Part shown: piece by piece, positions 126 through 25,325 of the stretch
Position numbering within the stretch: the stretch's first letter is position 1
Layout: the number at the start of each line of letters is the position of its first letter
Assembly (NCBI GenBank): GCA_964646505.1
Contig: CAZYEQ010000004.1
Span: forward strand, 1 to 36,232
Direction: 5' to 3'
Source of the DNA: an uncultured Gammaproteobacteria bacterium
GTDB taxonomy: Bacteria; Patescibacteriota; Patescibacteriia; Magasanikbacterales; UBA922
Length of the DNA stretch: 36,232 nt
Translations under genes and position numbers: made by a program
Notes under the pieces: generated by a model
The model's input: the letters and a program-made list of their open reading frames with translations, nothing else
Told to the model about the DNA's origin: nothing
Databases searched by the model: none

Positions 126-207
126 CCGGGAAGTCGTCCAAGAAACGGAGATCGACAGACAAAGGAGGTGATCATAATCATGAATGCTGATCGGTCTCGT
201 AAGAAAC

Positions 208-273: not shown

Positions 274-283
274 ATTTTCTCCT

Positions 284-877: not shown

Positions 878-929
878 ACAAAAGATTATACATCTAAGCC
901 TATCAGAGCATATTGCTCTTGTAAAGAAA

Positions 930-1934: not shown

Positions 1935-1964
1935 ATATAAAGGGAACTGGCGAATATACGCTAC

Positions 1965-1994
1965 TTGTCGCTTTTTGTCAAGCCATGCTATACT
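1965..1994 (+). promoter_or_regulatory. Putative sigma70-type promoter of smc with extended -10
   Basis: TTGTCG (1965-1970), 18-nt spacer, TGcTATACT (1986-1994). The -10 ends 10 nt before the smc ATG at 2005, implying a near-leaderless mRNA. Confidence 0.45.
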
Positions 1995-2004
1995 TCTTTT
2001 CATT

Positions 2005-9805: not shown

Positions 9806-11450
9806 TGCTTCGCTCGTTGACCAAAATACTTCAGGAGATTCATTTTTTGCAAGCGGCGCATTGGGGAGAGCAGTACGAGAACATTATCCATTTCGCAACC
9901 AACGTGATGTGCCGCGCAATTCACGTATTGCCGTTACGTTCCGCGAAGCGATTTATCCCGGAAGCATTGCTGATGACCAAAATGGTAACGGTATTTTTGG
10001 TGACTGTGTTGTGCCACAGGGTGAGGAGTTGAACTGGGCACTGCACTGTGATCACCCTACGACTGTTGTACAGGTTACCGCATCAGGAACAGCCCAGACC
10101 ATTGATATGGCGGCGTTACTTACCTACGCAGCTGACGGTTCTGTACGCAGTGTACTGTTTCGCCCAATCGAACTTCTTGGGTCACCTACAGAGCCAGTGA
10201 CGTATCGTGTATCACTCGGTGAAGGTATTCAGGTGGCAAATCGTTCCGCGAGTATTTTTGCCGGAGAACGTGGTCGCAGATATGACTGGACGTTTGAGAC
10301 AAATACACTCCTTGATGTGACACCGCCAACGGTGCTTAGTGTGTATCCAAACCATAACGCGCGTGTAGCCCGTAACACGATTGCGCAAGTACAGTTTAGC
10401 GAGGCCATGGATCCTACAACGGTACAGGGAGGCACGGGATCTTTTTCACATATTATTTTTGGCGCCACAACCCCTGGGGCGGTCATGCCAAGCGGTGAAT
10501 GGCGTGTCACAAATGCATATCAAACGGCCGAGTTTGTACCAAGTGACGTGTGTGGACAAAACAGTTGTGGCGATCAAATGTATTGTTTGCCAAGTGTATG
10601 TGCTGATGAGACGAATCCGGCATGTGTGAATAATCTCACTGTTCTTGTGCGTACCGCTCAAACAGTGCCAGGGAGTGCCACCTTTGAGGCCGTACCATTT
10701 AGCGGTGTTATGGATATGGCGGGAAACGCCCTTGATACCGGGCCAAGTAATTCGCGCAACGCTCGTGGTGCGCTGCCAGGTGATGGTGTGCTCGCAAATC
10801 CGCATCGCCCTGTTGCGCCGAATGAACTTTTACCAGATAATTTTTGGTGGAGTATACGAGTTATACCCGCCATTGATCGGAGTGTTCCTGTTATTCGCGA
10901 AGTGCGTCCACGAATCGATGAAGAAGGGGTGCGTAGTGACGACCCTCTTACTCTTACATTTACCGGCTCCATGTGGCCAAGCACGCTCGGTGATATTGCT
11001 TTAAATGAGTTTCCTGTGGCGAATGGTGCCGACCGTCCCTGGTCATCCCCCATATCCGAGCTTATTACAGGACCAAACGACACGACATTTACTGAGGTGA
11101 CTGTTCGGCATCGTTCTTTTGGTCCGGGTGGCACTCCATTTTATTACTTTACACAGGTGCCAAGCACGGTGCGTTCCGCGAATCAAAATTGTTTTTACCC
11201 CGGTCGTGGCCCGGTCGCAGATACACCTGGTTTACCTACGATTTGTGACTACGAAGAGGATGCAAATGGACAGATTATTCGAAATACGAATTGTGTCTCT
11301 GTATCTCCTCAAACATCGGTAGATCAAGACACTGGGTGTGTTCAAACAACGCTTCGACAAGAAGCGGGACAAGACTTGCGCGTGCAACCAAATATTCCAG
11401 CCTGCATAACGGTTATGCAGCGCGCCACAGTGAGCCCGGTGCAACCGTAA
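9366..11450 (+). CDS. Secreted/membrane-anchored exoprotein (694 aa): signal peptide, TrbC/VirB2-like two-helix head, SbsA-type Ig-like domains, Cys-rich tail
   Basis: Signal peptide ending VFA-QG. Then TDIRIIILRVINIFLSLLGILTVGLILYAGAKILFSNGDEQAVAEGRQIIVNAVIGLAIIMSAWGITRFI, which forms two TM helices around a short loop. Later PPTVLSVYPNHNARVARNTIAQVQFSEAMDPTTV (SbsA_Ig/Big_5-like). Many Cys residues in the C-terminal third. Confidence 0.85.
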   Translation: MLLPGFTQLISKYPKKTAFCLVGVFVAVFLVCAYFFSVPHVFAQGATGQDVLGVNALDQNLPLAGTDIRIIILRVINIFLSLLGILTVGLILYAGAKILFSNGDEQAVAEGRQIIVNAVIGLAIIMSAWGITRFIISRLGVATGLRGASLVDQNTSGDSFFASGALGRAVREHYPFRNQRDVPRNSRIAVTFREAIYPGSIADDQNGNGIFGDCVVPQGEELNWALHCDHPTTVVQVTASGTAQTIDMAALLTYAADGSVRSVLFRPIELLGSPTEPVTYRVSLGEGIQVANRSASIFAGERGRRYDWTFETNTLLDVTPPTVLSVYPNHNARVARNTIAQVQFSEAMDPTTVQGGTGSFSHIIFGATTPGAVMPSGEWRVTNAYQTAEFVPSDVCGQNSCGDQMYCLPSVCADETNPACVNNLTVLVRTAQTVPGSATFEAVPFSGVMDMAGNALDTGPSNSRNARGALPGDGVLANPHRPVAPNELLPDNFWWSIRVIPAIDRSVPVIREVRPRIDEEGVRSDDPLTLTFTGSMWPSTLGDIALNEFPVANGADRPWSSPISELITGPNDTTFTEVTVRHRSFGPGGTPFYYFTQVPSTVRSANQNCFYPGRGPVADTPGLPTICDYEEDANGQIIRNTNCVSVSPQTSVDQDTGCVQTTLRQEAGQDLRVQPNIPACITVMQRATVSPVQP

Positions 11451-11470: not shown

Positions 11471-11887
11471 ATGTCACGTATCGCCTTATATATCCGCCGT
11501 CATTTGCTCCATTTTATTTTCTTCTTTTTTTTCCTTTTGGTCGGTGGTTTCGTATTTTATGCTCACCCTACGTTCGCGCAAGGAACAAACGATGTACTCG
11601 GTGTAAATAGTTTTGAGGGCGCGAGCAATTTAGCGAGCACAGATATTCGTGTGATTGTTGCCAGAATTATTAATATTTTTCTTGGCCTTTTATCACTTCT
11701 TGCTGTTGGAATTGTGATTTATGGGGGGGTAACGTGGATGACTGCTGGTGGTGATGAAGGAAAAATTGAAGATGCTCGTAAGATTTTAGTGAATGGTGCT
11801 ATTGGTTTGGTCATTGTTTTGTCCGCGTTTGCCATTAGTCGTTTTGTGTTGAATCGTTTACAGGGCGCAACAGGATTGGCCGGAGGT
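11471..11887 (+). other. N-terminal pilin-like module of the giant protein
   Basis: STDIRVIVARIINIFLGLLSLLAVGIVIYGGVTWMTAGGDEGKIEDARKILVNGAIGLVIVLSAFAISRFVLNRL. Paralogous to 9366-9805. Confidence 0.6.
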
Positions 11888-14800
11888 GATCCGCTTGCGA
11901 GTTGCGCTGATTTGGCTCTTGCAAATGACCCTAGGTATGATGAGTTGTGTGGAAGAAATAGCGGAGGCTCTCTTGATTGTTCTGCTAATCCTTCGTGGTG
12001 CTGCGCACGTGATAACTTTATCGTGCAAAGTATGACGCCGCGAACTGATGGTACGAACATGAATAACGCGACTATACGTGTTGTGTTTAGTCGAGGGTTA
12101 CGAACTGGCGCGAATCAGGTTGTAGAAATATGGCGTAATGGTGTAACGACTACAAATGATTTTTCATTTCGATTTGCAGATCCGGCCAATCAAGTTCTTG
12201 AGGGAGTATATACTGGCACCTCAGCATGTGAAGAAACCCCAGGTTGTTTACCTCAGGGTGAGTATCGGGTGCGAGTGAACGACGGCATACGAGATGTGCG
12301 AGGACAAACTCTTCAAGAATCAGTTTCGTGTGGTACGTTTCCACGAGAAGCCACTTTTGGGGTAAATACCCCAGGCGCTATTGATATTTTTCCCCCTGAT
12401 ATTCCAGGTGGAATTATGATCGACGGGGTGCGTGCAGCCGATGCGCCGATTCCTGTAAATCGTGAAGTGGAAATACGTATACCTGTGACCGACAACACGG
12501 GGGCTGGGTATGTGCGTCTCGATGTTGGTCGTGAAGGACAGAGCACGGCAATCACGGCAGTAGGTGGGCCGTCGGTTGTACGGGGTTCTGACGCGGGGGT
12601 CGTTGATCCGTACGTGTATACATATCGGCTCTTTCTTGCTTCAAACACTCGTTTGGGAGAACGGTATGTGATTTCCGCTCGTGCGTATGATATTGATGGA
12701 AATAATGTAGCGGTATCTGCAACATTCGTGACGGTTGCGCCACACTGCGCGAATGGCATTCAAGATGAGGATGAAACCGATGTTGATGCAGGTCCCTCGT
12801 GTCAAAGTGTGGGCGCCTGTGCAGAAAATTGGCAATGTGTATCAGGTCAATGTGTATCAGGCCAATGTCAGGCCACCCCGATCATTACGAGTGTTGATCC
12901 TTGGGACGGAGCCGCGGGTTCGTGGGTTACGGTAAACGGTCGTTTTTTTGGTACAACTCCAGGGCAGGTGCAATTTGGCGTTGACCGTAATAATGATGGG
13001 GTGATTGCGGGAGCGGAGTGGGCTAATGCGAGCCTGGCTGCGTGTAATGGAATTTCTCCTTGGAGCGACTCTACTGTTATTGCGGAAGTACCTGATGATG
13101 CGGTATTACCACAAACGTCACTTTCAGCTATTCGCGTCGTGCGCGCGGATAATACTGCTTTAACGGATACAACCATTGATGCTCGTGGTCCACGTGGTGG
13201 ACCTCGTAATGGGTTATTTTTGAAAAATACCACCGAACGTCCACGTCTTTGTCGTGTTGAAGTGGGCGCTGGTCAAACGGCTGGTTTGCCTCAGACAGAC
13301 GCGCGTGCTATTGGTGAGTCGCTGCAGGGGGGTACACGTGAGCTTCGTTTTGGTCCGGTGGTAGCGAATATTTTAGGAGGCACTGATACACGTATCGATA
13401 CTCGTGTTCCTGAAGGATTGCGTCCGGGTGTCGTATCGGTAGCTGCCACTATTAACGGGGTGGTAAGTAATGCAGTACCGTTTACCATTCTTTCGCCAAA
13501 TTCAAATGATGTCCCCAATATTTCGGGTATTGATCCGGCTGAAACCACCCCGGGTAGCTATGTGACAATTAGTGGCCGAGGCTTTGACGGACGTTTAGGT
13601 GTGGTGTATCTCGCGAATGCTCTTGACCTGGTGTGTACACCGTCAAATCTACCCGCAGGGTGTGTTGAGGCACGTGCCACACTTCCGCCAGCATGTGGAG
13701 ACACATGGACTCCAACACAGGTCGTTTTTCAGGTACCAACAACCATACAGCCTGGACGATGGTTTGTGAATGTGCGAACCGCTCATGGATTATCAAGTCC
13801 ATTAGTAAATACCGCGGCAGTCACTGTTGTAGCTGGAAACCCACGACCAAGTTTGTGTAATATGTCACCAGAGCGTGGTCCAGCTCCACGCACCATTGCT
13901 GATGGTATTACGCTGCGTGGCGCAAATCTTTCTTCAGCAAGTATCGTGTATTTTTGGACCGCTCGCGCGAATGCAGCTGATGTGTCAACATGGCTTACCG
14001 CCCGCGCTCCCGATGTCCGTTTTACGAGTGCATCCGAATTGTTGAGTGTGATTCCTTCGATAGGTGGAGTTACAATGCAAACAGGTCCTATTCGTGTTTC
14101 TTCAAACGGTCAATTATCAAACAGTTTGACGTACACCGTTCTTGACTGTCGCACTATTCCTGACGAAGAAATTCCTGCAGGTCAACGTTGTTGCAGTGAC
14201 GGTTCACTTCTTGCGACTAATCAAGCCTGCCCAGGAGAAAGCCGCGACGCGGGTTATGTGTGGCGGTTTACGAATGGACAAATTTCCCAGCTCCCCGCCG
14301 TTATTGAAGAATGTGATGTCACAGGTGCTTCGAGTGCCATGCCTTCGCCATCACCAAGTGATATTTGGGGGAGAACGCAAACATGTGTCAATGCGGAAAT
14401 TCGCGCGCGATTTACGACTCCTATGGATGAGTCAACACTCGTAAGTCCAAACGTACGTGTGGTGACGTGTGGTGATGGAGTGTCGCCAGACTGCACGGGC
14501 CGAGTTGATGTGACCGACAGTTTCTTGATTCGTTACGAATCTCAAAGTTTGCGTGTGGCACCGCGCTCTGCCGCCACAGCACTTACAGCGAATACATGGT
14601 ATCGTGTTGAGCTTAGCACAAGTATCCGCTCACAAGAATCTCGGACTATTCTTGGTCGACCGCAAACGGTTTCAAACGCACTACAAGCAACTCGCCCATG
14701 TGGCGCGGGCACGGCTTATTGTTTTACGTTTCAAACAGGCACAAGGCGTTGTGAAATCGCGACCGCGCATATCTTACCACCGGAATACACCACAACTATT

Positions 14801-17800
14801 CTTGGAGTTATCCAGGATCCCCGTTTTCCTCGTACGTCCGCTGATCCACTTAATCCGCCCTATCCTTTATTTTACTATATTTGGGGTGCGCCACGAGAGG
14901 CATGTACGGTGATTAATGCCGACGGTTTAGGGTGGGTGTGGAGTGTTCCGCCTGAAGATGCGGGATATGCCAGTGTTATTCCTCGTCGTGATCCTCCACG
15001 GTATACTGATTCGCGCGCTGCTGTGACTGCCTTATCAAATTCTGTTCCAGATACTGCCCAAATTCATGCGACTGTCACTACGCCAAATAACACAACAATT
15101 CAGGCGGAAAGCACTCTAACCGTAGATTTGGGTGACCCACGAGTGGTTGGGTTTTGGCCTAACTGCAGTGAGTCGTGTACCAATGCCAATATCGGAGTTC
15201 AGTTCAATCAGAGCATGCTTCCGTCAACATATGAAGGCGCGCTTCATGTGTATCGGTGTGCAGACCCACTTTGCGCCAATCGAGTTGAAGAAGTACTCAC
15301 GACGGTAGTTGAACAAGACAATCCTTTGCGGTATCAAGTTGGAGCTGCGTCGCCACTTCTCGAGAATACATGGTATTTGGTAACGGTGTCTTCACAAATT
15401 CGAGCGATGACCGCGCTTGGGTCTACAAATCCAGGAAATCCTCTGGAACCGTTTCAGTGGCGTTTTCGAACCAAAGCCACAGCGGGTATTTGTGTGGCTG
15501 CGAGTGTGGTTGTAGAGCCTACATCGTTTACGGCGACAGCTGTTGGCCAGGTGACAAGGTACTTGTCGGTACCGGTGAGTCCAGGAGACCAATGTAGTCC
15601 TCTTGGTCAGGGGTTAAACCCATGGACGTTCGGATGGCAATGGAGCACCGAAGACGTAAACGTGGCTCGCGTGTCAAATTTTTCGAGTTTGGGAAGCCCA
15701 AGGCGTGAATGTACGCCTACGTGTGTTCCACGTGGTTCATCTTTAATTTCCGGAAGGCAATCAGGTGTTTCGGTGTGTGGTAATGGAACAGTGGACGCGG
15801 GAGAAGATTGTGATATTGCAATTTCTTCTGAAGTGCCTGGGGTAAGTTGTTCACTTTTTTGCTTGCGTCCAGGAAATAGTTCTCGCGGTACTGGGCCAAA
15901 CATGTGTGGAAACGGGGTCGTGGATACTGCGCAGGGTGAGGAGTGTGATCCGACAGGTGCAAATGCTGATACTCGTTTTTGTGATGAACGTTGTTTGCTC
16001 ATAGGAAACACTGCCCGAGGTAATGCACAAAACCAATGCGGTAATTCTGCTGTTGAGCCTTTGTTTGGTGAAGAGTGTGAGTCACGGCAAGGTGTAGAAG
16101 AGGATACCTCTTGTACGCAATCATGTGTTCGTGCTGGCAGTACTGTGCTCTCAGCAAGTTGGTGTGAACTTCGGCCAGTTGGAACAGACGCCACAACTTT
16201 ATCTGCATGCGCAACGCGCGCTGTTTCGATGTGTGGCGATGGAGTAATCAATCGTGGAGAAGTGTGTGAAATCGTAACTGGGTCGGGAACTGGCCCTGGT
16301 ACGATACGCCTGTACGGTGTACAGAATCCTGTGGCGGTTCAGGATGTGAGTGTGTGTACCAGTCAGTGTTTACTTGCGCATATTTGTAATGAAACAAATA
16401 TCCCAACTTCAGCGCCCACGTTACGCTGTGCATCTGGCGCTCCTGGGTGTACCTCACAGTGTACATTGCGAGGTGCAGACGTAACATATGAGACGCCATC
16501 ACTTTGTGGCGATGGACAGGATGGAATAGGGGAATACGGCATGTGTGAGTATAGTCCAGCAGATGTTACTGCTCGAGTTCCTGGTGTACGTACACCGATT
16601 GGTCAAAATCCTATACAAGTAGTAACTGCTGTGGGCGCATCGCAAAATATTCCAGCCGATGGACGTCAGGAGACTCGGGTGGCTGCTGATATTGTAGCGA
16701 GTTTGGCGAGTCGACTTGCGTCGCCTGTGCATGGTACAGGGGACTACGCACTGCAATGTGGTTTTGTTGAGTACCCTCCTGGCGCGCAAGTGGCTGATCA
16801 GGCGAACAACTGTCCACAGAATGCCGGAAATAATGATAATCGGTATGGGGTCGGTACAAATTCATGTTGCCAACTTCGTCCGGAGCGTACTTCAAGTTAT
16901 CCAGCGGATGGTACGGGTTTTCAGGGGACTGCTTCAGCATGCCGTAATACGCTTGTTGAGTTTGAAACAACAGGGGAACTTGATGAGGCAACTCTTGAAC
17001 GCAATATAGTTATTGCTCGTGGATATCCGGCTGGTGCTGCTACTGTGCCGTGTCGGAATACGGGCGATGATGTAACAGATGCGGTTCGCGATACGTTGGC
17101 CTACGAAGAAGTACCCCGTGGCATTATTCGAGGTACCATTTTCCGCGTTCGCCATTTTTTTAGAGCCCTCCTTGAAGGGCAGGCGTTTGCTTCGGCATTA
17201 CGACTTGATCAGGTTAATGTGGCTGATTGGTGCGGAGGTTCGACTCGGTTCATTTCTGATACGTCGTATACACGCGATGCTTCAGGTGTGGTACAAAGCA
17301 CTCGTGTGCGTCTGCAACTTCTTGACGCTCTTGAAGCAAATACAACCTATGCCGTGCTTTTGCGCGGAGGTACGACAGGTATAAAAAATGTTCGCGGTGT
17401 GAGTTTGCGCCCTGATACAACCGCCCAAAATGTTGAGGCAAGTTCGTGGGTGTTTGAGACCGGTCGTGATATTTGTCGAGTAAATGAGGTGGTGGTGGAA
17501 CCAAATACCTTTTTGTTTACAAGACCAAATACAACTGCGGAGTTTGTGGCGACAGCGCGCACGGCAGCAGGTCAACAAGTCGTGCCTATCCCAAATATCT
17601 ACAACTGGTCATGGGCTTGGGGGCCGCAAAATAACGCTGTGTTTGCGATACCTGCAAACGGTACCACTATTAACACTGACCACATGGTGATCGGTTCTCG
17701 TACTCTTGGGCAAGGGGAAAGAGTTACAGGATTTGCTCACTTACAGATTACACAAGATGTGCTTGCGACAGCCGGTACACGTTTACCGCAATTCACTGAC

Positions 17801-20800
17801 ACGTTTGATCTCACTGCGCTGTTTTGCGAAAATCCTTGGCCTAGACGCGGTATATATCCGTATGAAGATGCAGTACGTCGTGGCGCAGTTGCAAATAATG
17901 ATGAATTTGACGGTGATTGGACCGGAGGCGCTATTCCACCGATTGCGGTGAATGGAGCAACTTTCTACCCTAATATCCAGTTTGGATACTGCGCTGACGC
18001 GGGACGTTCGAATGATACGAGCGACGATCTTCCATATCTTAGACCAACCGTTTTGGGCGATGTTCGTAATGGGGCAATCGCGCCGTTCGGTGATTCTTTG
18101 CGTCGCATTCTTTTCTTTAATGATAGGAATGACGATGCGATTGGGTATCAAGTGTTCGATAACACCACACGAGTGACCCCTGTTACACCAAGCCCTGCAC
18201 CTACTCCGGCCCCAGCACTTCCTCCATTGCCAGAAACTGTCCCAGATGGACGGGCGCTGCGTTTCTTGGGTGATGCTGCTCAGGCAGGTCATGAATTTCC
18301 AATTGGTGAGCCAATCCCTCTTCTTTGGGCGGGCGGGCAAAATCCTGGTCGCGTACGTATTAGTATTTTGTTATTGAATCCCGCGGGTAATGCCTATGTA
18401 ACAAATGATCAGATTCCCAACTCGCAAGTAAGTTTGTTATCATCGATTGATAACGACGGGTCAGAGTACGTGACACTTCCTCTTGATATTGCGCATCCAA
18501 GTCCAGATAGCCGATATGAATTTTTAATTATCGAAGACGGAACCAGCGCTCAGGGGTTTAGTGCTCGTATTACACTGCGCGACCCTGCACCTTCGGTGCC
18601 TGTGCCACCACCAAGTTGGGTACCTATGGTTACCGCATATCGCACATTGACTGAATGGTATCAGGCGAAGTTTGGGGCAGTACCGTCAACGATGCGTCGT
18701 GTGACGGTACAAGGGTACGAGGCCTTAACTGACGGTAATAGTTACTACATTAGCGGCCTTAATCAGTTTGAGGAACGTGATCGTAATACTCTTGGAAATC
18801 ATGTGTATTTATTTACGATTAACCCCGACGCGCAAGAATCCACCAAACGTGTTTTTACAGCGCTTATTAATTCGCTTCGGTTCAATATCAATATTAGCGA
18901 TGTAGGGCTTTGTTCGGTTGGTGACGGGTCACGAGAAAGTGATATTTTTACACCGGACGCAGCTGGAGTAGCATGTACGGTTGATAGCGACTGCACCACT
19001 TTGGGTGAGGGTCGTATCTGCGCAAACGCACGAACTAAATTACTTCGTGATTGGACACGTCTACAAGATGTAGCGGGGGTTCAAACAGCCGCCTCAATCG
19101 TGTACGCGCGTGACCAGCGTTTCCCACTTCTTTCATCAGGTACGTATATCCCTGGGTACACGAATTCCCGCTGGCCATCGTGGGGGGCAACATTGTCGCA
19201 AGCACTTGGTGCCGCGCTTCCACGAGATCCACTGAATAGCTGGAGTGGGTGTGATGGGGCCGATCCTCAGACATGTTGGAATCCTGACGCGGCGACCGGC
19301 GGCACATTCCAATGTCCGGTAGACGCAAGTATCTATGAGTATACAGTGCGGAGTGATGGTTCAAATTATGAACTCCATGTGCCATTTGAGTATTTTCGTG
19401 GCGAAACAGGTATCGTTGATGCTCTGCTTGATACCGACCGGCTCACGACGAATCGTTTCTGCGTTGGTACTCCCCAAAGTCCGGTTGCCGGGGCGTGTGG
19501 CAATGGCATTTTGAACGCGGGTGAAGAGTGTGATCCACCTGGAACACGCGGGACATCGTTTACCGATGGTAATGGGCAACAGTGTCAACAGGGTCAACTT
19601 GCAAGCACAAGATGCGGTGATACGTGTCGTCTTGAGGTGGGACAGTGTCAACCAACCGGCCGTTGCGGTAATGGTGTGATTGAGGGTAATGAACGCTGTG
19701 ATGATGGTAGCGCGAACGGACAGTATGGACATTGCGCGACAGACTGCAACGGGCTTTCAGGGGCGTACTGTGGTGATGGACAAATAAACACCAACGCGGC
19801 CGGCGCGGCATTGGAGCGTTGTGATAAAGCCGAAGCACAATTCCAAAGTGGTTTTTGTGATAAACAGTCGTGTAAGGACGCACGTTTTGACATTCAACCA
19901 GAGTCCACAAATGGTGTGACCGGAATTATGGCCGGCACTGATTCGGTAAGTGTTCGTGGTAACCGTCTTTGGCTTGTGACCACGATCAGCCAAACACCTT
20001 CGTCCCCAATGCGCAGTCATATTTATTCTGGGGCGGTTGGCCAGCAATACACACGTGTGTTTGATGGTCCGAATTTAAATTTGTATGCTGTTTCTTTCGC
20101 TAATCAAAATGTTGGACTTGCTGCCGGAGGATTGCGCAATGGCCCCAACACTGACGGTGCTGTAGTACGTACTGTGAACGGTGGCGTTGATTGGCAAACA
20201 ATTCAAGTTCGTGGCGCCTCAACTCTTACAAGCGTCGCTATGGTTTCAGATCAGATTGCGTTTGTTCTTGACGATCAGGGTCTTATTTTTCGATCAACCG
20301 ATGGTGGCGCGACGTGGTCGAATTCAATTCAATCTATTGGCATTGCGGGGCGCAAGATTCAGTTTTTTGATGCTCAATTTGGTTGGGCTGTTGGTACAGG
20401 AAGACTTTTTATTACCCGTGACGGCGGAAATACATGGACTCAGGCAAATGTGCCTGGTGGCATTGTTCCGTATGATGTCGTATTTGCCAATCGGTATATT
20501 GGGTATGTCACCTCAGACCAAGGTACATCAATTGCTCGAACCGATGACGGTGGAAATACGTGGGAGGTCTTTGCAACTCCTTCACTTCGGCAGGGATCTT
20601 TGAGTGCTCGAGGAAAGATTGCGATTGTTGACCAGCAAACAGTGGTGTTGTGGGCCGGTGCAACCTACCCAGGAAACGTTATTGGGTATGCCCTTCTAAC
20701 AACAAATAATGGTGGTCAAACATGGTCGGAAATAAGTACCGCAAATAATCAGATTGGTGGCGGCGGCCCCATTGTTCGTGCTGACACTGCTGTCGTGGCT

Positions 20801-22804
20801 ATATTTCGTACGCCAACAAGTAGACTTGTGCTTACACCCGACAACTACTGTGTGTCACAAACACTGTGTACACAAAATACCCAGTGTGAAAATGGAGATG
20901 CGTGTGTCTTAGATGCGCTTCCGACGTACCATGGGCAACAAGGAGGAAGTTGTTCGTTCGATTGTCAGAATGTTGGTGGGTACTGTGGAGATGGTATTGT
21001 GAATGCAATACACGAAGAGTGTGATGATGGAAACACGAATAATGCTGATTCGTGTACCAATTTGTGTTTTCGACGCACAGCTATTACACCTGTAACTCCA
21101 ACAGGAAGTTACTGTGGTGATGGGGTGGTTCAAACACCAAACAGTCAGGGGGTAAACGAGACGTGTGATAATGGTGTAAATAATGGTGTTGTTCCGCAAA
21201 ATACACCCTATGGTCAACGTATTGTGTACTGTTCCGCGCGCTGCACAGAGGAAACAAGAGACCCAGTGGCGTTTTGTGGGAACGGTATTGTTGAGGGGCC
21301 AGAAGTATGTGACGCCGACCCATCGAGTGGCGCGGTTTTTGGACGCGGTGGAGCCCAACTGGCGTGCGCGGGCGGAAATCTTTCTGTGGCAAATAGAGGG
21401 TCGTATCGCTGTGTGGATAATTGCCGTCGAATTGACAGTACATGTACAGTGTGCGGTGTGGTAGAAGTGTGTAGCGCAAATAGGGCTGAGTGTCTATTGA
21501 ATGGAACAGGAAATCAGTGTCAGGATCATTTATGTGCGAATGGTCTAGGGCAACGCGTGGCGTGCAACCAGGGCCAACAGAGTGATTGTCGGTATGTAGG
21601 CACAACGGATGGTGGTATTTGTAATGATGGTATTGATAATGACGGTGACGGCCTTACGGACTGTGCTGACTTTACAGGTGGTGGCGCAAACCCACAGATT
21701 GCGATTTTAAACCCAATCGTATCGAGGTTACGGACTGGTTCTGAGGCGTGGGGTATCGTAAATGATGTGTCCATGGTTCGTGGTGGTCTCGATGCGCCAT
21801 ATCGTGCTGTGGGTCCATTAAATAATCGACAATATATATATGAAGGAGCAATGGGTGGTCGCCTCCTGGCCGCAACAGCAAATTATTCATTCGGGCTTCC
21901 AGCGACTTCAGTTTTTTCAGTTAATTCCAATCAACTTAATACAAGATTAAACATTAATACAAATCCACAGTGTGTAGATGTGTATAGTTTGGATGTTAAT
22001 CACATGGCCATTCCACAAACGTTGTTACAGCCACCAATCAGCCCAAGAGTTGCGGGTCCAGGCAGTTTATTTCCGTATCCTGTTGATGGTCAGGCCGGTA
22101 CTATGAGCTACGAGTATGTGCTCAGTCCCGCGGTACCGCAAAATGTATTCCGTGTCGTGGTGCGTTGGGGTGAAGATGAGGCACAAGCGCAAGCAGAATT
22201 TTTAGGAAATCTCTACCACAATGACTTTCCTCAGAACGGTGGGCGTATTGTGAATTTGGCTATTGCGCAGGCACGTACGGTGCAAGAGAGTGTTAACTAT
22301 GTTTGTGACAACATTGGTGAACAGCAACTCGCTATCGGTGGTGGGCAAACTGCCAATTATTGGTGGAGCATTGATTGTTCGTCAATAGCAAGTACAGATG
22401 CTAGCGCCCCTGCCGAAGTGTATGTGCATCCAAATTTATCGCTATCAAAAACATTTATTCAATCCATGACGATTGATCTGCGTAATGCAAATTCAATTGC
22501 GCCATTCCAGTTCTTTATTGATGATACTACGCGTCCTATGTATGAGTATCGAAATAATCAGAATTTTACAGTCGAGGTGTATGAATATCATAATGGTCAG
22601 AATCCGCTTCGTTCTGTTTACCTACCACGAGTGTTCCGTATCAGTGGCACTGTTGGAACAAGTTCAAATCCAAACGCGCAATACTGGCATGTATTTAATA
22701 TCGTACGGAATCCGGGAAATGGAAGATATGAGATTCGGGCTCTTGGTCCATCGGGCGATGGGAGTCTTGAGACAGACATTGAAGATATTCACAATAACTT
22801 ATAA
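11471..22804 (+). CDS. Giant multidomain surface protein (3,777 aa) with a TrbC/VirB2-like head
   Basis: One uninterrupted ORF. ATG at 11471 (MSRIALYIRRHLL...) lies 20 nt after the upstream stop. The ORF-track start at 11291 overlaps the previous gene. Signal peptide ends TFA-QG, followed by the two-helix head. Then come SbsA-type Ig-like domains, four IPT/TIG-like domains, 11 CGNG/CGDG...ECD cysteine repeats in three clusters, a Pro-rich linker, a five-blade Asp-box region, a CNDGIDNDGDGLTDC motif, and a motif-free C-terminus of about 370 aa. Confidence 0.9.
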   Translation: MSRIALYIRRHLLHFIFFFFFLLVGGFVFYAHPTFAQGTNDVLGVNSFEGASNLASTDIRVIVARIINIFLGLLSLLAVGIVIYGGVTWMTAGGDEGKIEDARKILVNGAIGLVIVLSAFAISRFVLNRLQGATGLAGGDPLASCADLALANDPRYDELCGRNSGGSLDCSANPSWCCARDNFIVQSMTPRTDGTNMNNATIRVVFSRGLRTGANQVVEIWRNGVTTTNDFSFRFADPANQVLEGVYTGTSACEETPGCLPQGEYRVRVNDGIRDVRGQTLQESVSCGTFPREATFGVNTPGAIDIFPPDIPGGIMIDGVRAADAPIPVNREVEIRIPVTDNTGAGYVRLDVGREGQSTAITAVGGPSVVRGSDAGVVDPYVYTYRLFLASNTRLGERYVISARAYDIDGNNVAVSATFVTVAPHCANGIQDEDETDVDAGPSCQSVGACAENWQCVSGQCVSGQCQATPIITSVDPWDGAAGSWVTVNGRFFGTTPGQVQFGVDRNNDGVIAGAEWANASLAACNGISPWSDSTVIAEVPDDAVLPQTSLSAIRVVRADNTALTDTTIDARGPRGGPRNGLFLKNTTERPRLCRVEVGAGQTAGLPQTDARAIGESLQGGTRELRFGPVVANILGGTDTRIDTRVPEGLRPGVVSVAATINGVVSNAVPFTILSPNSNDVPNISGIDPAETTPGSYVTISGRGFDGRLGVVYLANALDLVCTPSNLPAGCVEARATLPPACGDTWTPTQVVFQVPTTIQPGRWFVNVRTAHGLSSPLVNTAAVTVVAGNPRPSLCNMSPERGPAPRTIADGITLRGANLSSASIVYFWTARANAADVSTWLTARAPDVRFTSASELLSVIPSIGGVTMQTGPIRVSSNGQLSNSLTYTVLDCRTIPDEEIPAGQRCCSDGSLLATNQACPGESRDAGYVWRFTNGQISQLPAVIEECDVTGASSAMPSPSPSDIWGRTQTCVNAEIRARFTTPMDESTLVSPNVRVVTCGDGVSPDCTGRVDVTDSFLIRYESQSLRVAPRSAATALTANTWYRVELSTSIRSQESRTILGRPQTVSNALQATRPCGAGTAYCFTFQTGTRRCEIATAHILPPEYTTTILGVIQDPRFPRTSADPLNPPYPLFYYIWGAPREACTVINADGLGWVWSVPPEDAGYASVIPRRDPPRYTDSRAAVTALSNSVPDTAQIHATVTTPNNTTIQAESTLTVDLGDPRVVGFWPNCSESCTNANIGVQFNQSMLPSTYEGALHVYRCADPLCANRVEEVLTTVVEQDNPLRYQVGAASPLLENTWYLVTVSSQIRAMTALGSTNPGNPLEPFQWRFRTKATAGICVAASVVVEPTSFTATAVGQVTRYLSVPVSPGDQCSPLGQGLNPWTFGWQWSTEDVNVARVSNFSSLGSPRRECTPTCVPRGSSLISGRQSGVSVCGNGTVDAGEDCDIAISSEVPGVSCSLFCLRPGNSSRGTGPNMCGNGVVDTAQGEECDPTGANADTRFCDERCLLIGNTARGNAQNQCGNSAVEPLFGEECESRQGVEEDTSCTQSCVRAGSTVLSASWCELRPVGTDATTLSACATRAVSMCGDGVINRGEVCEIVTGSGTGPGTIRLYGVQNPVAVQDVSVCTSQCLLAHICNETNIPTSAPTLRCASGAPGCTSQCTLRGADVTYETPSLCGDGQDGIGEYGMCEYSPADVTARVPGVRTPIGQNPIQVVTAVGASQNIPADGRQETRVAADIVASLASRLASPVHGTGDYALQCGFVEYPPGAQVADQANNCPQNAGNNDNRYGVGTNSCCQLRPERTSSYPADGTGFQGTASACRNTLVEFETTGELDEATLERNIVIARGYPAGAATVPCRNTGDDVTDAVRDTLAYEEVPRGIIRGTIFRVRHFFRALLEGQAFASALRLDQVNVADWCGGSTRFISDTSYTRDASGVVQSTRVRLQLLDALEANTTYAVLLRGGTTGIKNVRGVSLRPDTTAQNVEASSWVFETGRDICRVNEVVVEPNTFLFTRPNTTAEFVATARTAAGQQVVPIPNIYNWSWAWGPQNNAVFAIPANGTTINTDHMVIGSRTLGQGERVTGFAHLQITQDVLATAGTRLPQFTDTFDLTALFCENPWPRRGIYPYEDAVRRGAVANNDEFDGDWTGGAIPPIAVNGATFYPNIQFGYCADAGRSNDTSDDLPYLRPTVLGDVRNGAIAPFGDSLRRILFFNDRNDDAIGYQVFDNTTRVTPVTPSPAPTPAPALPPLPETVPDGRALRFLGDAAQAGHEFPIGEPIPLLWAGGQNPGRVRISILLLNPAGNAYVTNDQIPNSQVSLLSSIDNDGSEYVTLPLDIAHPSPDSRYEFLIIEDGTSAQGFSARITLRDPAPSVPVPPPSWVPMVTAYRTLTEWYQAKFGAVPSTMRRVTVQGYEALTDGNSYYISGLNQFEERDRNTLGNHVYLFTINPDAQESTKRVFTALINSLRFNINISDVGLCSVGDGSRESDIFTPDAAGVACTVDSDCTTLGEGRICANARTKLLRDWTRLQDVAGVQTAASIVYARDQRFPLLSSGTYIPGYTNSRWPSWGATLSQALGAALPRDPLNSWSGCDGADPQTCWNPDAATGGTFQCPVDASIYEYTVRSDGSNYELHVPFEYFRGETGIVDALLDTDRLTTNRFCVGTPQSPVAGACGNGILNAGEECDPPGTRGTSFTDGNGQQCQQGQLASTRCGDTCRLEVGQCQPTGRCGNGVIEGNERCDDGSANGQYGHCATDCNGLSGAYCGDGQINTNAAGAALERCDKAEAQFQSGFCDKQSCKDARFDIQPESTNGVTGIMAGTDSVSVRGNRLWLVTTISQTPSSPMRSHIYSGAVGQQYTRVFDGPNLNLYAVSFANQNVGLAAGGLRNGPNTDGAVVRTVNGGVDWQTIQVRGASTLTSVAMVSDQIAFVLDDQGLIFRSTDGGATWSNSIQSIGIAGRKIQFFDAQFGWAVGTGRLFITRDGGNTWTQANVPGGIVPYDVVFANRYIGYVTSDQGTSIARTDDGGNTWEVFATPSLRQGSLSARGKIAIVDQQTVVLWAGATYPGNVIGYALLTTNNGGQTWSEISTANNQIGGGGPIVRADTAVVAIFRTPTSRLVLTPDNYCVSQTLCTQNTQCENGDACVLDALPTYHGQQGGSCSFDCQNVGGYCGDGIVNAIHEECDDGNTNNADSCTNLCFRRTAITPVTPTGSYCGDGVVQTPNSQGVNETCDNGVNNGVVPQNTPYGQRIVYCSARCTEETRDPVAFCGNGIVEGPEVCDADPSSGAVFGRGGAQLACAGGNLSVANRGSYRCVDNCRRIDSTCTVCGVVEVCSANRAECLLNGTGNQCQDHLCANGLGQRVACNQGQQSDCRYVGTTDGGICNDGIDNDGDGLTDCADFTGGGANPQIAILNPIVSRLRTGSEAWGIVNDVSMVRGGLDAPYRAVGPLNNRQYIYEGAMGGRLLAATANYSFGLPATSVFSVNSNQLNTRLNINTNPQCVDVYSLDVNHMAIPQTLLQPPISPRVAGPGSLFPYPVDGQAGTMSYEYVLSPAVPQNVFRVVVRWGEDEAQAQAEFLGNLYHNDFPQNGGRIVNLAIAQARTVQESVNYVCDNIGEQQLAIGGGQTANYWWSIDCSSIASTDASAPAEVYVHPNLSLSKTFIQSMTIDLRNANSIAPFQFFIDDTTRPMYEYRNNQNFTVEVYEYHNGQNPLRSVYLPRVFRISGTVGTSSNPNAQYWHVFNIVRNPGNGRYEIRALGPSGDGSLETDIEDIHNNL
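12871..14145 (+). repeat. Four tandem IPT/TIG-like Ig-fold domains (protein-level repeats)
   Basis: Repeat starts are ITSVDPWDGAAGSWVTVNGRFFG, LCRVEVGAGQ..., ISGIDPAETTPGSYVTISGRGFDG and LCNMSPERGPAPRTIADGITLRGANL. Each unit ends in a ...SN(A/S)(V/L)(P/T)(F/Y)T(I/V)L-type strand. Confidence 0.6.
15770..16555 (+). repeat. Cysteine-rich repeat cluster 1 (5 units of C-G-(N/D)-(G/S)-x(5-10)-E-C-(D/E))
   Basis: CGNGTVDAGEDCD, CGNGVVDTAQGEECD, CGNSAVEPLFGEECE, CGDGVINRGEVCE, CGDGQDGIGEYGMCE. These resemble the Myxococcus cysteine-rich repeat (DUF4215-type). Confidence 0.65.
19490..19870 (+). repeat. Cysteine-rich repeat cluster 2 (3 units)
   Basis: CGNGILNAGEECD, CGNGVIEGNERCDDGSANGQYGHC, CGDGQINTNAAGAALERCD. 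Confidence 0.65.
20170..20730 (+). repeat. Five BNR/Asp-box-like repeats (probable beta-propeller)
   Basis: TVNGGVDWQT, STDGGATWSN, TRDGGNTWTQ, TDDGGNTWEV and TNNGGQTWSE, spaced roughly 40-60 aa apart. Confidence 0.65.
20980..21330 (+). repeat. Cysteine-rich repeat cluster 3 (3 units)
   Basis: CGDGIVNAIHEECDDGNTNNADSC, CGDGVVQTPNSQGVNETCDNGVNNG, CGNGIVEGPEVCD. Confidence 0.65.
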
Positions 22805-22848: not shown

Positions 22849-23256
22849 ATGCAAAAAAGCTGGGTTCGCATTGTGCTTGGAGTGATCACGATAACTCTTA
22901 TCGGTGGGGGACTGTTTTTTATCACGCAACAGCCACAAAAAAAAACGTCAGAAATACTCCCATCGTCTACATCAACTTCGACGGAGGAGCGGCCTAATCC
23001 TGAGCCAATGCCAAATCCAAACCCTTTTCCAGGTGATGATGATAGGGATGGACTCACGAATGCAGAAGAAACGCAGCTGGGTACCAATCCACACAACTTC
23101 GATACTGACAATGATTCACTGTCTGACGTTACTGAAGTACAAGTGATTCACACTGATCCAAAAAAAGCAGATACCGACGGTGATGGGTTTCACGACGGCA
23201 TAGAAGTTCTCCATGGGTATAATCCTTTAGGAAAGGGAACGTTATCTAAACCTTAG
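22849..23256 (+). CDS. Small N-terminally anchored protein with TSP type-3-like calcium-binding repeats (135 aa)
   Basis: TM helix WVRIVLGVITITLIGGGLFFI and a Pro/Asn-rich linker. Then DDDRDGLTNAEE...DTDNDSLSDVTE...DTDGDGFHDGIEVLHGYNPLGKG. Confidence 0.75.
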   Translation: MQKSWVRIVLGVITITLIGGGLFFITQQPQKKTSEILPSSTSTSTEERPNPEPMPNPNPFPGDDDRDGLTNAEETQLGTNPHNFDTDNDSLSDVTEVQVIHTDPKKADTDGDGFHDGIEVLHGYNPLGKGTLSKP

Positions 23257-23267
23257 ATATATTGCGT

Positions 23268-24101
23268 ATGTTCGATAATCAACTTACCGGAACAACAGGA
23301 AAAGGTCAGGCACCCAGCAACTTACCTATGGGTGAGCCCGAAGATATGTTTTCTTCCGTTACTGGTGACGAGGTGGGTGGTTCAGAAGAACAACCTTCGG
23401 CACTCGAGGCGGGGGTTTTGAAACCAAAGTCCCAGCCTATACCAGCACAAGCGGATGCGCACACAGACAATACGGAGCCAGTAGACTCTTCTGATTTTGA
23501 AGTCATGGCAAAAGTGCCACGTGAACAGGTGCGTCGTGTTGTTCCCTCGCCAGCCGCTGCTGCTCCTGCCGCATACCCTGAGTATCGTATTCAAGAGCCA
23601 TCTATCATTAAAAGCGTCTTTTTGGTTATTCTGGTTATTTTGGTTGTTGCGGGTGTTGGTTTCGGCGGGTGGTGGGCATATGGTGCTTATATCGCACCTC
23701 GCCTCGATAATTCAGGCGCAGCACCAATATCTTCCTCCGAAGAGACCAATAATCTCCCTTCGCCTACGGTTTCTCCTTCGTCTGAGCTAACTGAAGATAT
23801 TGATCATGATAGTAATCCGGCCGATGACGCAATTTTATTTGGCTCCGTGCCCGATACAGACGGTGATGGCCTCGATGATCTGAAAGAGAAAGAATTGGGA
23901 ATAGATCCTACCCGCTTCGATACCGATGGTGACGGACTTTCTGATTATGACGAAGTGGTATCGTGGAAAAGTGATCCACAAAATCCTGACACGGACGGTG
24001 ATGGGTATACGGATGAAGAAGAGATTAAAAATGGGTATAGCCCGACAGGTCCAGGTCGTATTTTTGAGCCACCAACACCGTCGCCCGCGATAAGTCCATA
24101 G
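23268..24101 (+). CDS. Bitopic membrane protein with TSP type-3-like repeats (277 aa from ATG 23268; a TTG at 23262 is also possible)
   Basis: Acidic/Pro-rich N-terminal region of about 115 aa. TM helix VFLVILVILVVAGVGFGGWWAYGAY. Then DTDGDGLDDLKE...DTDGDGLSDYDE...DTDGDGYTDEEEIKNGYSPTGPG. Confidence 0.75.
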   Translation: MFDNQLTGTTGKGQAPSNLPMGEPEDMFSSVTGDEVGGSEEQPSALEAGVLKPKSQPIPAQADAHTDNTEPVDSSDFEVMAKVPREQVRRVVPSPAAAAPAAYPEYRIQEPSIIKSVFLVILVILVVAGVGFGGWWAYGAYIAPRLDNSGAAPISSSEETNNLPSPTVSPSSELTEDIDHDSNPADDAILFGSVPDTDGDGLDDLKEKELGIDPTRFDTDGDGLSDYDEVVSWKSDPQNPDTDGDGYTDEEEIKNGYSPTGPGRIFEPPTPSPAISP

Positions 24102-24113: not shown

Positions 24114-25325
24114 ATGGCCTTTAGGTTATTCAAAAAAAATTCAAAAGAAAGACCGCCTGAGGCTCCTGTGTTAGCAAGGGTAACAGTCATTCCTGATTCG
24201 TTTTACGGCGGAGCAAATCCAGTCGTGTATGCACATGAAGCACCGTCACACGCTGACCATTCTTCGGTGGCGCCAAAAATGATTCCTGTGGGTCAGGTAA
24301 CCCCGCCGACTCCGCAAAAACCAGTAGTGTCGCGCCGTGCTGACATGAAAGCGGCTATGGACACCACAGAAGACAAAAAAAACGATCAGGAATCAAAACA
24401 GCGTGAGAGCGACATGCTTGATATTCCTAAAGAAGGCACGTCTCGTCCGGTATTTATGTGGGCTGGAGTTGGCATCACACTCATTGTTTTAGTTGGTATT
24501 TCATATTGGTATGTGACACGTTCACTCCAAACGACCAACCGGCCGCTCTCACCACTACCACCAAGTTTTGAAGCGATACCGCAGCCGCAAATACGTCCGG
24601 TCGAGCCACCACCGGCACAAGTTGTGGCGCAAGTGCCGACTACTTCTATTTCTGAAGTGCCCACCTCTACGCGCCAAACATTACCTACTTTGTCACCGCT
24701 TAGTCTTTTGCCGGACGATGCAGATATTGACAATGACGGGCTTACGGATACCGAAGAAGATGTGCTTCAAACCGACAGTGGCACCTGGGATACAGACGGA
24801 GACGGATATTATGACGGTCAAGAAGTCATGAACCTCTATAATCCAACCGGCTTCGCGCCAGTAAAAATTATTGACTCAGGTCGTGTGCTCGAGTATACGC
24901 AGCCGCTTCATTCGTGGAAGATCTATTACCCAACTCCATGGGATGTTGGCACGGTAGAAGACTCTGTTCCCCATGTTCTGTTTAGCGCGGTAACAGGTGA
25001 TTATATTGAGGTTATTGAGTCAGAAAAACTCCCTGGTGAGACATTTGAATTGTGGTTTGCTCGTGTGTTGCAAAATCAACGGTTCAGCGATCTTCTCAAA
25101 AAAACCAATCGTTTCATGATTCCGTACTATATTCGACAAGATGGGCTAGTTGGGTATGTGGAAGACATGAATCGGGTGTATGTTGTGGCGTATCATCAAG
25201 GATCCGCAAATGTTGTGTTGTATCGTCATATTTTTGATATGATGATGCAAAGTTTTCGCCTTGGGGGGTCGGCTATTTCCACTCCGGATCAACCTCGCAT
25301 ACCAGTCACGCCAAGTGCGACATAA
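24114..25325 (+). CDS. Bitopic membrane protein with TSP type-3-like repeats and a C-terminal globular domain of about 150 aa (403 aa)
   Basis: TM helix VFMWAGVGITLIVLVGISYWYV and a Pro-rich linker. Then DIDNDGLTDTEED...DTDGDGYYDGQEVMNLYNPTGFAP, followed by an unassigned domain (LEYTQPLHSWKIYYPTPWDV...MMQSFRLGG). Confidence 0.75.
   Translation: MAFRLFKKNSKERPPEAPVLARVTVIPDSFYGGANPVVYAHEAPSHADHSSVAPKMIPVGQVTPPTPQKPVVSRRADMKAAMDTTEDKKNDQESKQRESDMLDIPKEGTSRPVFMWAGVGITLIVLVGISYWYVTRSLQTTNRPLSPLPPSFEAIPQPQIRPVEPPPAQVVAQVPTTSISEVPTSTRQTLPTLSPLSLLPDDADIDNDGLTDTEEDVLQTDSGTWDTDGDGYYDGQEVMNLYNPTGFAPVKIIDSGRVLEYTQPLHSWKIYYPTPWDVGTVEDSVPHVLFSAVTGDYIEVIESEKLPGETFELWFARVLQNQRFSDLLKKTNRFMIPYYIRQDGLVGYVEDMNRVYVVAYHQGSANVVLYRHIFDMMMQSFRLGGSAISTPDQPRIPVTPSAT

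Follow-up and report, generated by a model that had tools for sequence, protein, structure and literature searches.

How the Patescibacteria (the candidate phyla radiation, CPR) find their hosts and hold on to them is a central open question, and candidate molecules are, to our knowledge, almost lacking outside a few Saccharibacteria. This report is about a giant gene (positions 11471-22804, + strand) in a 36,232-nucleotide stretch of patescibacterial DNA, namely positions 1 to 36,232 of contig CAZYEQ010000004.1 from GenBank assembly GCA_964646505.1. The stretch is referred to below as the window, and all positions are counted from its first letter. The predicted product, of 3,777 amino acids (aa), begins like a pilin of a type IV secretion system (T4SS) and continues as a very large, adhesin-like ectodomain.

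Several described systems are close to it in one respect or another. Patescibacteria, including the class ABY1, carry T4SSs with VirB2-like pilins or pilin arrays, which are near virB4 in only 1,135 of 1,948 assemblies, and a PrgB-like adhesin was not found in them (PMC12102498). For its epibiotic growth, a Saccharibacterium requires the T4SS, pilins and adhesins (PMC10633639). Modular type IV pilins have many alternative grafted modules, for example VWA and lectin modules, and the largest one quoted has 860 aa (PMC8179133). Giant adhesins can be much longer; the LPXTG-type adhesin of Mobiluncus, built of immunoglobulin (Ig)-like repeats, has 7,651 aa (PMC6272769, PMC10619420). Finally, among the CPR proteins with a signal peptide and at least two transmembrane (TM) helices, some reach a very large size, up to 2,228 aa, and have no known function (PMC7143001).

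In the interpretation that we prefer, with moderate confidence, the giant is a fibrillar protein, rich in disulfides, on the surface of a Magasanikbacteria-type cell, and it has the construction of a modular T4SS-type pilin by which an adhesin is displayed. The gene itself is real and is under purifying selection throughout. On the + strand, its frame stays open between 11291 and 22804, and from the first ATG, at 11471, it is a single unbroken open reading frame (ORF) of 11.3 kb that encodes 3,777 aa and ends in SLETDIEDIHNNL and a stop codon; a random ORF of 3,777 codons is excluded, as its probability is (61/64)^3777, or about e^-181. An orthologue from an independent assembly (P0010, from Logan SRR29476927) is also 3,777 aa long, aligns from 7-3777 to 7-3777 with 72% identity and has the same gene order around it as in the window. 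Between these two genes, the ratio of nonsynonymous to synonymous differences per site (pN/pS) is 0.09-0.42 in all 300-codon segments, with saturated synonymous sites (pS ~0.74). The ratio is 0.09-0.21 in the core, 0.37 over an insert at aa 2099-2391 and 0.30-0.42 in the distal third, which evolves 2-3 times faster. Full-length orthologues of 3,000-5,275 aa are present in dozens of further assemblies. The giant has 128 Cys residues (3.4%), compared to 0-1.3% in most proteins of the neighbourhood (and ~3% in two small ones, NrdR and DAGK), and this high content fits a disulfide-bonded extracellular protein.

An earlier reading of the DNA from its letters alone, which we call the original prediction, had claimed an uninterrupted ORF of this length, had pointed out that its size is extreme for a small genome and had named collapsed repeats as a possible source of error. 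The open frame, the orthologue of the same length and the purifying selection bear out the first claim; as to the second, the gene would take up ~1.3% of a genome of ~0.9 Mb, the size of related closed chromosomes. Collapsed repeats were looked for, and there are no direct DNA repeats of at least 30 nt across the giant gene except for one 36-bp tandem duplication; comparison of the giant protein with itself by BLAST gives no internal similarity. The duplication (12833-12868, a 15-bp unit in 2.4 copies) is the only tandem repeat in the module formed by the giant gene and its partners, and it encodes a doubled CVSGQ in the sequence ...CQCVSGQCVSGQC... of a small Cys-knot.

The beginning of the protein has the features of an exported pilin. 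Residues 1-36 (11471..11578, + strand, immediately upstream of position 11579) are a signal peptide by sequence and hydropathy, with the basic n-region MSRIALYIRRH, a hydrophobic core and the end ...HPTFA, and cleavage is predicted between this end and the following QG; A36 and Q37 are invariant or almost so among the orthologues. The next residues, 37-135 (11579..11875, + strand), constitute a complete VirB2-type (T4SS_pilin) module with a short outside N-terminal segment, a first TM helix, the polar loop TWMTAGGDEGKIEDARK, a second TM helix and the end ...RLQGATG. The T4SS_pilin profile PF18895 matches aa 59-125 with 30.7 bits when the whole protein is searched, 34.5 bits with a piece of it and 34.5-39 bits with the head alone (cutoff 26.6), and the same profile matches 23 of 23 family heads. 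The TrbC/VirB2 profile PF04956 matches 11 of these 23 heads (best E 5.8e-5) and CagC matches two; the match of the window head to PF04956 is weak (E = 0.13). In NCBIfam, the giant matches a pilin-like conjugal transfer protein with a score below the threshold. Hydrophobic segments are found at aa 4-36, 58-92 and 102-130 only, and past aa 140 the top hydropathy of a 19-residue segment is 1.54. The whole giant protein has no LPXTG, PEP-CTERM, RTX nonapeptide (GGxGxD) or prepilin motif (G↓FTLxE, where ↓ marks the cleavage) and no hydrophobic tail. An N-out/C-out topology follows from the sequence, in which, given the predicted cleavage and orientation, the loop would be cytoplasmic and the Cys-rich part of ~3,640 aa would be outside.

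On a conservation map of distant orthologues, no other 100 aa of the protein are as well conserved as the head. Its loop motif, W/Y-M-T-[AS]-G-G-x-E-x-K...A-K-K, is common to small free-standing and tandem-fused T4SS_pilin proteins. The free small pilins stop 0-10 residues past ...L..A-T-G, and the giants have the same motif, then a Gly/Ser linker and then the ectodomain; in the window protein the linker is Gly-rich and runs from aa 136 to ~145. The succession of pilin module, Gly/Ser linker and first ectodomain Cys was seen in the ~40 long members that we inspected of 119 collected. As the head ends at the end point of the free pilins and a linker follows, the giant consists of a whole pilin, a linker and a cargo.

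The cargo is made up of Ig-like domains, Cys-rich repeats and further modules. Past the linker, the first Ig-like (Big_5-like) domain is at aa 184-284 (12020..12322); the Big_5 match is weak (18.1 bits), and the region is conserved in the orthologues. The small Cys-knot mentioned above (aa 426-466) precedes an IPT/TIG-like Ig array at aa ~467-900 (12869..14170), with TIG matches of 36.6 bits over two stretches, the best at aa 682-770. Two Big_5 Ig-like domains (aa 967-1062 and 1223-1334), joined by conserved Cys-containing modules, occupy 14369..15472 (27.5 and 28.8 bits in pieces, 75.1 bits in the whole protein). They are followed by the first cluster of Cys-rich acidic repeats (CG[ND]G...ExC[DE]) at aa ~1434-1700 (15770..16570), found by a motif scan and kept in the consensus of 21-41 orthologues, and by a central chain of Ig-like beta-sandwiches at aa ~1730-2230 (16658..18160) that is predicted by AlphaFold2 (AF2) and Foldseek and has a weak Big_5 match at aa 1930-1997. 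All of these features, and those that follow, are on the + strand. The AF2 model of aa 1690-2680 has a mean predicted local distance difference test score (pLDDT) of 71.9 with 20 orthologues in the alignment, and Foldseek places the modelled core next to tandem Ig arrays (PTP-delta, complement MG domains, cadherins, desmogleins, filamin and Leptospira LigA; E 7.5e-6 to 1e-3), with no enzyme fold among the matches of aa 1690-2680. Big_5 was found in 22 of 30 orthologous segments.

Next in order is a family-specific mixed alpha/beta domain, aa ~2390-2675 (18638..19495), which with 89% identity and a pN/pS of 0.09 versus P0010 is the most constrained block between close relatives. Its family profile has no sequence match in Pfam or the PDB. 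The domain is also an insertion hot-spot: one orthologue has a full BNR propeller there, another has a FISUMP-like module ('GWHIPT...') and a third has a helical insert of ~90 aa. A pseudopilin-like globular domain (T2SSG) at aa ~2520-2650 was considered and rejected. This lead came from a weak match in one member and from a 'YP.L..G ... DP.N.W' pattern; when the family profile was compared by hhalign with five real GspG sequences the probability was 3%, and only the 26-column 'Y...YP.L..G' was aligned.

The second cluster of Cys-rich repeats, at aa 2676-2800 (19496..19870), was again found by the motif scan. It is followed by a lineage-specific BNR/Asp-box beta-propeller at aa ~2896-3095 (20156..20755), with five Asp-boxes (S/T-x-D-x-G-x-x-W) at aa 2901-3085 and matches to PSII_BNR (41.1 bits, cutoff 27), Sortilin-Vps10 (32 bits) and, in the PDB, Ycf48 (E 1.6e-8). 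This propeller is the sole match in PDB sequence searches with the whole protein and with profiles of the central core, the head and the alpha/beta domain. The third Cys-rich cluster is at aa ~3160-3400 (20948..21670) and is related to TIGR02232 and DUF4215. The repeats match TIGR02232 (myxo_disulf_rpt) with 25.8 bits (cutoff 20.8); DUF4215 is under its cutoff in the window protein and strong in five of 13 orthologues (best E 2.3e-27). The giant has 12 matches to CG[ND][GS], 11 of them in the three clusters. The protein ends in a membrane-distal beta-rich domain, aa ~3530-3777 (22058..22804), which has a YWHVFN motif and is conserved in most orthologues; AF2 models its last ~245 aa with a pLDDT above 90, and the model has no significant neighbour in the PDB or in a viral structure library.

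Profile searches detected no enzyme domain in the giant. The conserved core comprises aa ~150-2200 and 2400-2800, that is, the Ig-like/TIG domains and the Cys-rich repeats. Among 13 orthologues, the head is present in all 13, Big_5 in 12, TIG in eight (best E 1.3e-43) and BNR in four, and further modules have been gained or lost (Big_7, DUF4215, LamG, FG-GAP, VWA and LVIVD). All of the ectodomain modules named across these orthologues are of a binding or adhesion type. The original prediction had named a signal peptide with a two-helix VirB2-type head, the lack of a C-terminal sorting signal and an ectodomain of ~3,600 aa with Ig-like, IPT/TIG, cysteine-repeat and Asp-box propeller modules, and in these points it agrees with our results: PF18895 scores above its cutoff and three hydrophobic segments are N-terminal, the motif and hydropathy scan gave no sorting signal, ~3,640 aa follow the head and the profile searches recovered every type of module.

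The gene is one member of a large conserved family, occurs in a fixed gene module and is not peculiar to a single genome, points that the original prediction did not make. When one genome per species was scanned, 353 relatives were obtained; the best 80 of these 353 are mostly from Candidatus Magasanikbacteria and the others are from Uhrbacteria, Falkowbacteria, Komeilibacteria and the 'Patescibacteria group'. The closest relative listed has 67% identity in the best segment and is on a 914-kb contig, and related closed chromosomes have 0.89-1.19 Mb. An exhaustive HMMER search with aa 1-470 as the query against cluster representatives (50% identity) gave 21,692 matches at E <= 1e-3, 3,839 at E <= 1e-10 and 115 at E <= 1e-30; Magasanikbacteria and related Patescibacteria have at least 115 such clusters of these proteins. 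Among the best 150 matches, 149 are newly listed, and 94 of these have at least 3,000 aa; the median is 3,538 aa, and most of the best matches are between 3,000 and 5,000 aa long. A search for homologues and a comparison of their domain order had been proposed with the original prediction, and the outcome is a large family with a shared head and Ig-like core and with variable distal modules. The central core, used as a single sequence or as a 30-sequence alignment, found nothing in a word-indexed protein database, the index of which evidently does not retrieve these giants.

Some members of the family display other patterns. In one clade (loci L022, L026, L028 and L031, and also L068, L069 and L049) the giant is consistently split into a pilin-headed ORF of ~2,260 aa and an ORF of ~1,100-1,340 aa that carries on the conserved core. 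In the pair L001/L056, locus L001 has two long ORFs that overlap in different frames in a frameshift-like manner. For all of these loci, a real split, recoding or a sequencing error would be possible. Many third-party annotation (TPA) metagenome-assembled genomes that have this Patescibacteria-specific module (L003, L005, L006, L012 and others) are titled 'uncultured Gammaproteobacteria bacterium', which is evidently a labelling error.

The giant gene is not the only pilin-headed gene of the locus. The gene immediately before it (9366..11450, + strand) encodes a 694-aa partner with a signal peptide, a T4SS_pilin head at aa 71-135 (34.2 bits), a Big_5 domain (51.6 bits) and a Lys-poor ectodomain. 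The heads of the partner and the giant are 49.5% identical and the remaining sequence is unrelated. A pilin-headed ORF of 550-1,150 aa is immediately 5' of the giant in nearly all of 80 loci. On the 3' side there are three genes, all on the + strand, for TSP3-repeat membrane proteins. The first (22849..23256, 135 aa, TSP3_bac 60.4 bits) has an N-terminal TM anchor and, outside, TSP3 repeats of the Ca-binding type. The second (23262..24101, 279 aa, 51.2 bits and synteny) has a cytoplasmic N-terminal part, one TM helix and outside TSP3 repeats, and the third (24114..25325, 403 aa) has a cytoplasmic N-terminal part, one TM helix, a TSP3 repeat and a C-terminal domain, its assignment being based on synteny and on a TSP3_bac score (24.7 bits) that falls slightly short of the cutoff of 25. 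In 43 of the 45 loci that reach at least 2 kb past the giant, it is followed by two or three TSP3-repeat genes, with a median gap of ~16 nt.

The other neighbours in the window are housekeeping genes, namely those for ClpP, SMC, S16, signal peptidase I, HisRS, YqeY, YbeY, DAGK, FtsA, FtsZ, NrdR, pyruvate kinase and phosphoenolpyruvate (PEP) synthase. Signal peptidase I, HisRS and YqeY are 5' of the module in 63-66 of 81 loci, and YbeY, DAGK and FtsA are 3' of it. The conserved flanks in the 81 loci are thus housekeeping genes, which indicates that the locus is vertically inherited and chromosomal, and that it is neither a T4SS cluster nor part of a mobile element.

These results would fit the following sequence of events. 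The protein is presumably exported by the Sec system, and signal peptidase I would then remove the 36-aa leader. The VirB2-like two-helix module (aa 37-135) is predicted to insert as a hairpin with both ends outside and the conserved polar loop in the cytoplasm, so that the Gly-rich linker would lead ~3,640 aa to the outside, in the order Ig-like/TIG domains, Cys-rich repeats, alpha/beta domain, BNR propeller and distal beta-rich domain. The conserved proximal two-thirds would be a stalk, on the order of 100 nm long if extended, as estimated from ~3,640 aa of modules that have the size of ~100-aa beta-sandwiches. The fast-evolving, module-swapping distal third may bind a ligand or the surface of a host or of something in the environment. 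The head probably keeps pilin-type contacts, with its counterpart in the adjacent 694-aa partner and perhaps also with the T4SS machinery and small pilins, and it would in this way present the adhesin either at the tip of a pilus-like structure or at its base. Judging from synteny, the TSP3-repeat membrane proteins, two or three in number, may be parts of the same apparatus.

A more ambitious version of this interpretation is that modular VirB2-type pilins occur naturally, as the giant and the 694-aa partner, with heads that are recognized by the patescibacterial T4SS or co-assembled with small pilins and with ectodomains at the tip or base of the pilus. The T4SS pilus would then be a host-docking organelle that presents adhesins, and this family would be its 'missing adhesin'; in a variant, the head would be cut off and matured like TrbC/TrhA. 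We regard this as a tentative proposal, possible rather than probable. In VirB2-type pili, the loop between the helices faces the lumen and both termini are together on the other face (PMC11722321), and with the termini there a C-terminal graft would point outward.

Several observations weigh against the interpretation of the giant as a modular pilin that displays an adhesin. A profile of the head matched no solved pilin among the PDB sequences. The net charge of the polar loop is approximately -1, and so the positive-inside rule taken alone gives little support to the orientation. No VirB4, VirB6 or other T4SS gene is present in the 36-kb window or within ~10 kb in related loci. The name 'adhesin' is derived from the types of the domains only, and the alpha/beta domain at aa ~2390-2675, the best-conserved block between close relatives, could carry an unseen activity. 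Furthermore, a cargo of ~400 kDa per subunit is, for steric reasons, difficult to combine with a homopolymeric helical pilus, which would leave the giant at most a minor, tip or base role.

An alternative is that the pilin-derived hairpin has been exapted as an N-terminal membrane anchor only and that the giant is a static surface fibril or adhesin of the cytoplasmic membrane that contacts neither pilins nor a T4SS. The predicted topology is compatible with this, the context of the locus is one of vertically inherited housekeeping genes with no T4SS genes close by, a cargo of 3,640 aa is awkward on a polymerizing subunit and, with no other sorting signal, the head must be what retains the protein. 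The distance from T4SS genes is uninformative here, however, as the small-pilin arrays are also often far from virB4 (PMC12102498) and have none within 10 kb, which makes the absence of nearby T4SS genes a weak criterion. The state of the head is more difficult to explain in this manner. A simple membrane anchor normally requires hydrophobicity only. Instead, the head is the most conserved part of the protein across distant orthologues, it has the loop motif and the end point of free pilins, and in nearly all loci a second pilin-headed partner is beside the giant. None of this would be expected of an inert anchor, and a retained pilin-type interaction is at least as likely. We therefore consider an anchor-only role to be possible, if doubtful, and the head to be probably more than a passive anchor. 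The original prediction had preferred a hairpin anchor to a pilus subunit; the hairpin part of it agrees with the topology described above, but the preference for an anchor over a subunit is not established, in view of what the head has in common with free pilins.

An envelope or structural role can also be imagined, in which the giant and the TSP3 proteins form a Ca-dependent surface layer, a spacer or a scaffold associated with division. The vertically inherited locus adjoins ybeY-dagK-ftsA-ftsZ, two-thirds of the protein is conserved core, and the TSP3 repeats, like the acidic Cys-rich ones, are motifs of a Ca-binding or structural kind. The position beside the fts genes may, however, be mere conserved synteny, and the distal third, besides evolving 2-3 times faster, swaps modules of ligand-binding types (BNR propeller, LamG, VWA, FG-GAP and FISUMP-like). 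Proteins with a variable partner typically show this pattern, and we consider a purely structural role to be unlikely.

Still less likely, in our opinion, is that the giant is a polyprotein of pilin and cargo, cut after ...A-T-G as in the maturation of TrbC/TrhA, to give a small pilin and a released ectodomain of ~3,640 aa that is secreted or separately attached. The P- and H-pilins do have a C-terminal cleavage by signal-peptidase homologues (PMC11722321), the giant has a complete pilin up to the exact end of the free pilins with a flexible linker next, and there are tandem chains of two or four pilins, one of which (P0154) has a leader-like site between its modules. In addition, a signal peptidase I gene is conserved three genes 5' of the pilin pair. 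This peptidase scores as an ordinary LepB and not as TraF, though, the head of the giant is not followed by a leader-like A-x-A↓Q site, and a released ectodomain would have no other means of attachment to the cell. Finally, an assembly artefact, in which a chimeric join, collapsed repeats or fused genes produce a false giant ORF, might be suggested by the relatives with a gene split in two, but it is effectively refuted by the lack of repeats in DNA and protein, the collinear orthologue P0010 of the same length, the dozens of complete orthologues of 3,000-5,275 aa and the purifying selection in every segment.

The small pilins of the Patescibacteria also have some patterns of their own. Tandem-fused pilins with two or four T4SS_pilin modules per chain (P0118, P0136, P0140, P0145, P0150 and P0154; loci L085-L087) are encoded in arrays of 5-6 pilin genes. 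In P0154, a leader-like A-H-A↓Q-G-L site recurs in the linker between the modules, a hint of polyprotein processing. Locus L087 has two small modular pilins (1759-2472 and 2474-3178 of that locus), one with a Cys-rich domain of ~115 aa after the pilin module and the other with a Cys-rich domain of ~125 aa between the signal peptide and the pilin module. Small modular pilins of this kind, with N- or C-terminal Cys-rich additions of ~100 aa, are thus members of pilin arrays and give a continuum of sizes. Two apparent stand-alone pilins that are nearest to the head, P0134 and P0151, were set aside; they are on contigs of ~800 bp with 1-2x coverage, are probably fragments and are uninformative on free pilins.

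Some other features of the locus can be noted. The signal peptidase I gene (6472-7140), which is conserved in 66 of the 81 loci, was considered as a TraF-type pilin-processing enzyme and rejected, since it is an ordinary LepB (TIGR02227, 141 bits) and the TraF models score far under their cutoffs. Scans for promoters and terminators around the module gave nothing above chance. Lys makes up 0.6% of the partner (9366-11450) and 0.4% of the giant, which has 14 Lys residues, two of them in the loop of the head; Arg is normal at ~6%. Most of the neighbours have 3.5-15% Lys; the values are 1.6% for DAGK, a membrane protein, and 3-5% for the TSP3 proteins. Lys is also low in the closest relative (L006), the pattern is reversed in L014 (8.0% Lys, 1.1% Arg) and other orthologues are low in both. 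The PEP synthase homologue (31275-34397) has 1,040 aa, of which the models cover aa 7-798, and its extra ~240 C-terminal residues match no NCBIfam model. An ORF of 105 aa (29464-29781) between nrdR and the pyruvate kinase gene has no match in Pfam or NCBIfam. Between 1975 and 35651, all of the called genes from SMC onward are on the + strand and the cumulative GC skew climbs monotonically over the whole window, which would fit a segment of a single leading-strand replichore.

The module defined here is vertically inherited in Magasanikbacteria, Uhrbacteria, Falkowbacteria and Komeilibacteria and accounts for nearly 2% of a ~0.9-Mb genome. The main product of the module, a conjugation-type pilin with a huge adhesin-like stalk, is a plausible and testable candidate for a host-contact apparatus. 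If the head still contacts the T4SS or small pilins, the enigmatic relaxase-less T4SS of the Patescibacteria would be tied to host attachment and the principle of modular pilins would extend from type IV to VirB2-type pili. In this case the head, the partner, the TSP3 proteins and the distal domain would be concrete targets for electron cryotomography, proteomics and host-range prediction. Should the head be an anchor and nothing more, it would still be a previously undescribed way for a monoderm-like cell to hold a giant surface protein.

How then does the giant compare with the known systems? It resembles the VirB2/TrbC-type pilins of patescibacterial arrays (PF18895; PMC12102498) in its signal peptide, its two hydrophobic helices with a short polar loop and its profile score above the cutoff. 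The head also has the same loop motif and C-terminal end point as these pilins, and the two adjacent pilin-headed genes resemble the arrays. However, the giant has 3,777 aa instead of ~110-135 aa (mature, ~70-130 aa) and it is not beside virB4.

The modular type IV pilins, for example PilB/PilC of Streptococcus sanguinis (PMC8179133), follow the same general plan, in which a short linker joins a small pilin module to a grafted adhesive one that a filament presents. The giant has neither the class III leader (G↓F/M-T-L-x-E, IPR012902) nor a Pfam match of the N_methyl type; its carrier is a VirB2-type hairpin and its cargo is 4-6 times larger. By this analogy the giant works like a modular type IV pilin and is not a member of that class.

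With the giant adhesins (SiiE, LapA/RTX and the LPXTG Ig-repeat type; PMC6272769, PMC10619420) it has in common Ig-like rods of several thousand residues, distal ligand-binding modules and the position of largest protein of the proteome. It differs from them in that it has no type I secretion (RTX) signal or LPXTG motif, has a pilin hairpin as its N-terminal anchor, does not consist of near-identical repeats and, with its 128 Cys residues, is very Cys-rich. The SPEARE proteins of Nanohaloarchaeota (PMC6642349) and the giants of Omnitrophota (PMC10066038, bioRxiv 10.1101/2023.11.21.568195) are similar in that a tiny genome devotes a very large share of its length to a single huge surface protein with a presumed role in contact with the host or prey. 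These are from other lineages and have other domain sets, including protease, nuclease or cell-wall-degrading domains, and no pilin head has been reported for them.

The PrgB-type adhesins of Gram-positive conjugation systems (class MPF-FATA) may be functional analogues, being large surface adhesins that serve a T4SS of the monoderm type; no sequence relation was detected, and the giant is linked to a T4SS through its head only. PrgB itself is LPXTG-anchored and is encoded in the T4SS operon. In conclusion, we found no account of a VirB2-type pilin with a large ectodomain attached to it in the literature that we searched, and the architecture of VirB2-type pilin and giant adhesin-like stalk is in this sense an undescribed one, which combines three known kinds, the VirB2-type pilin, the modular-pilin principle and the giant adhesin.

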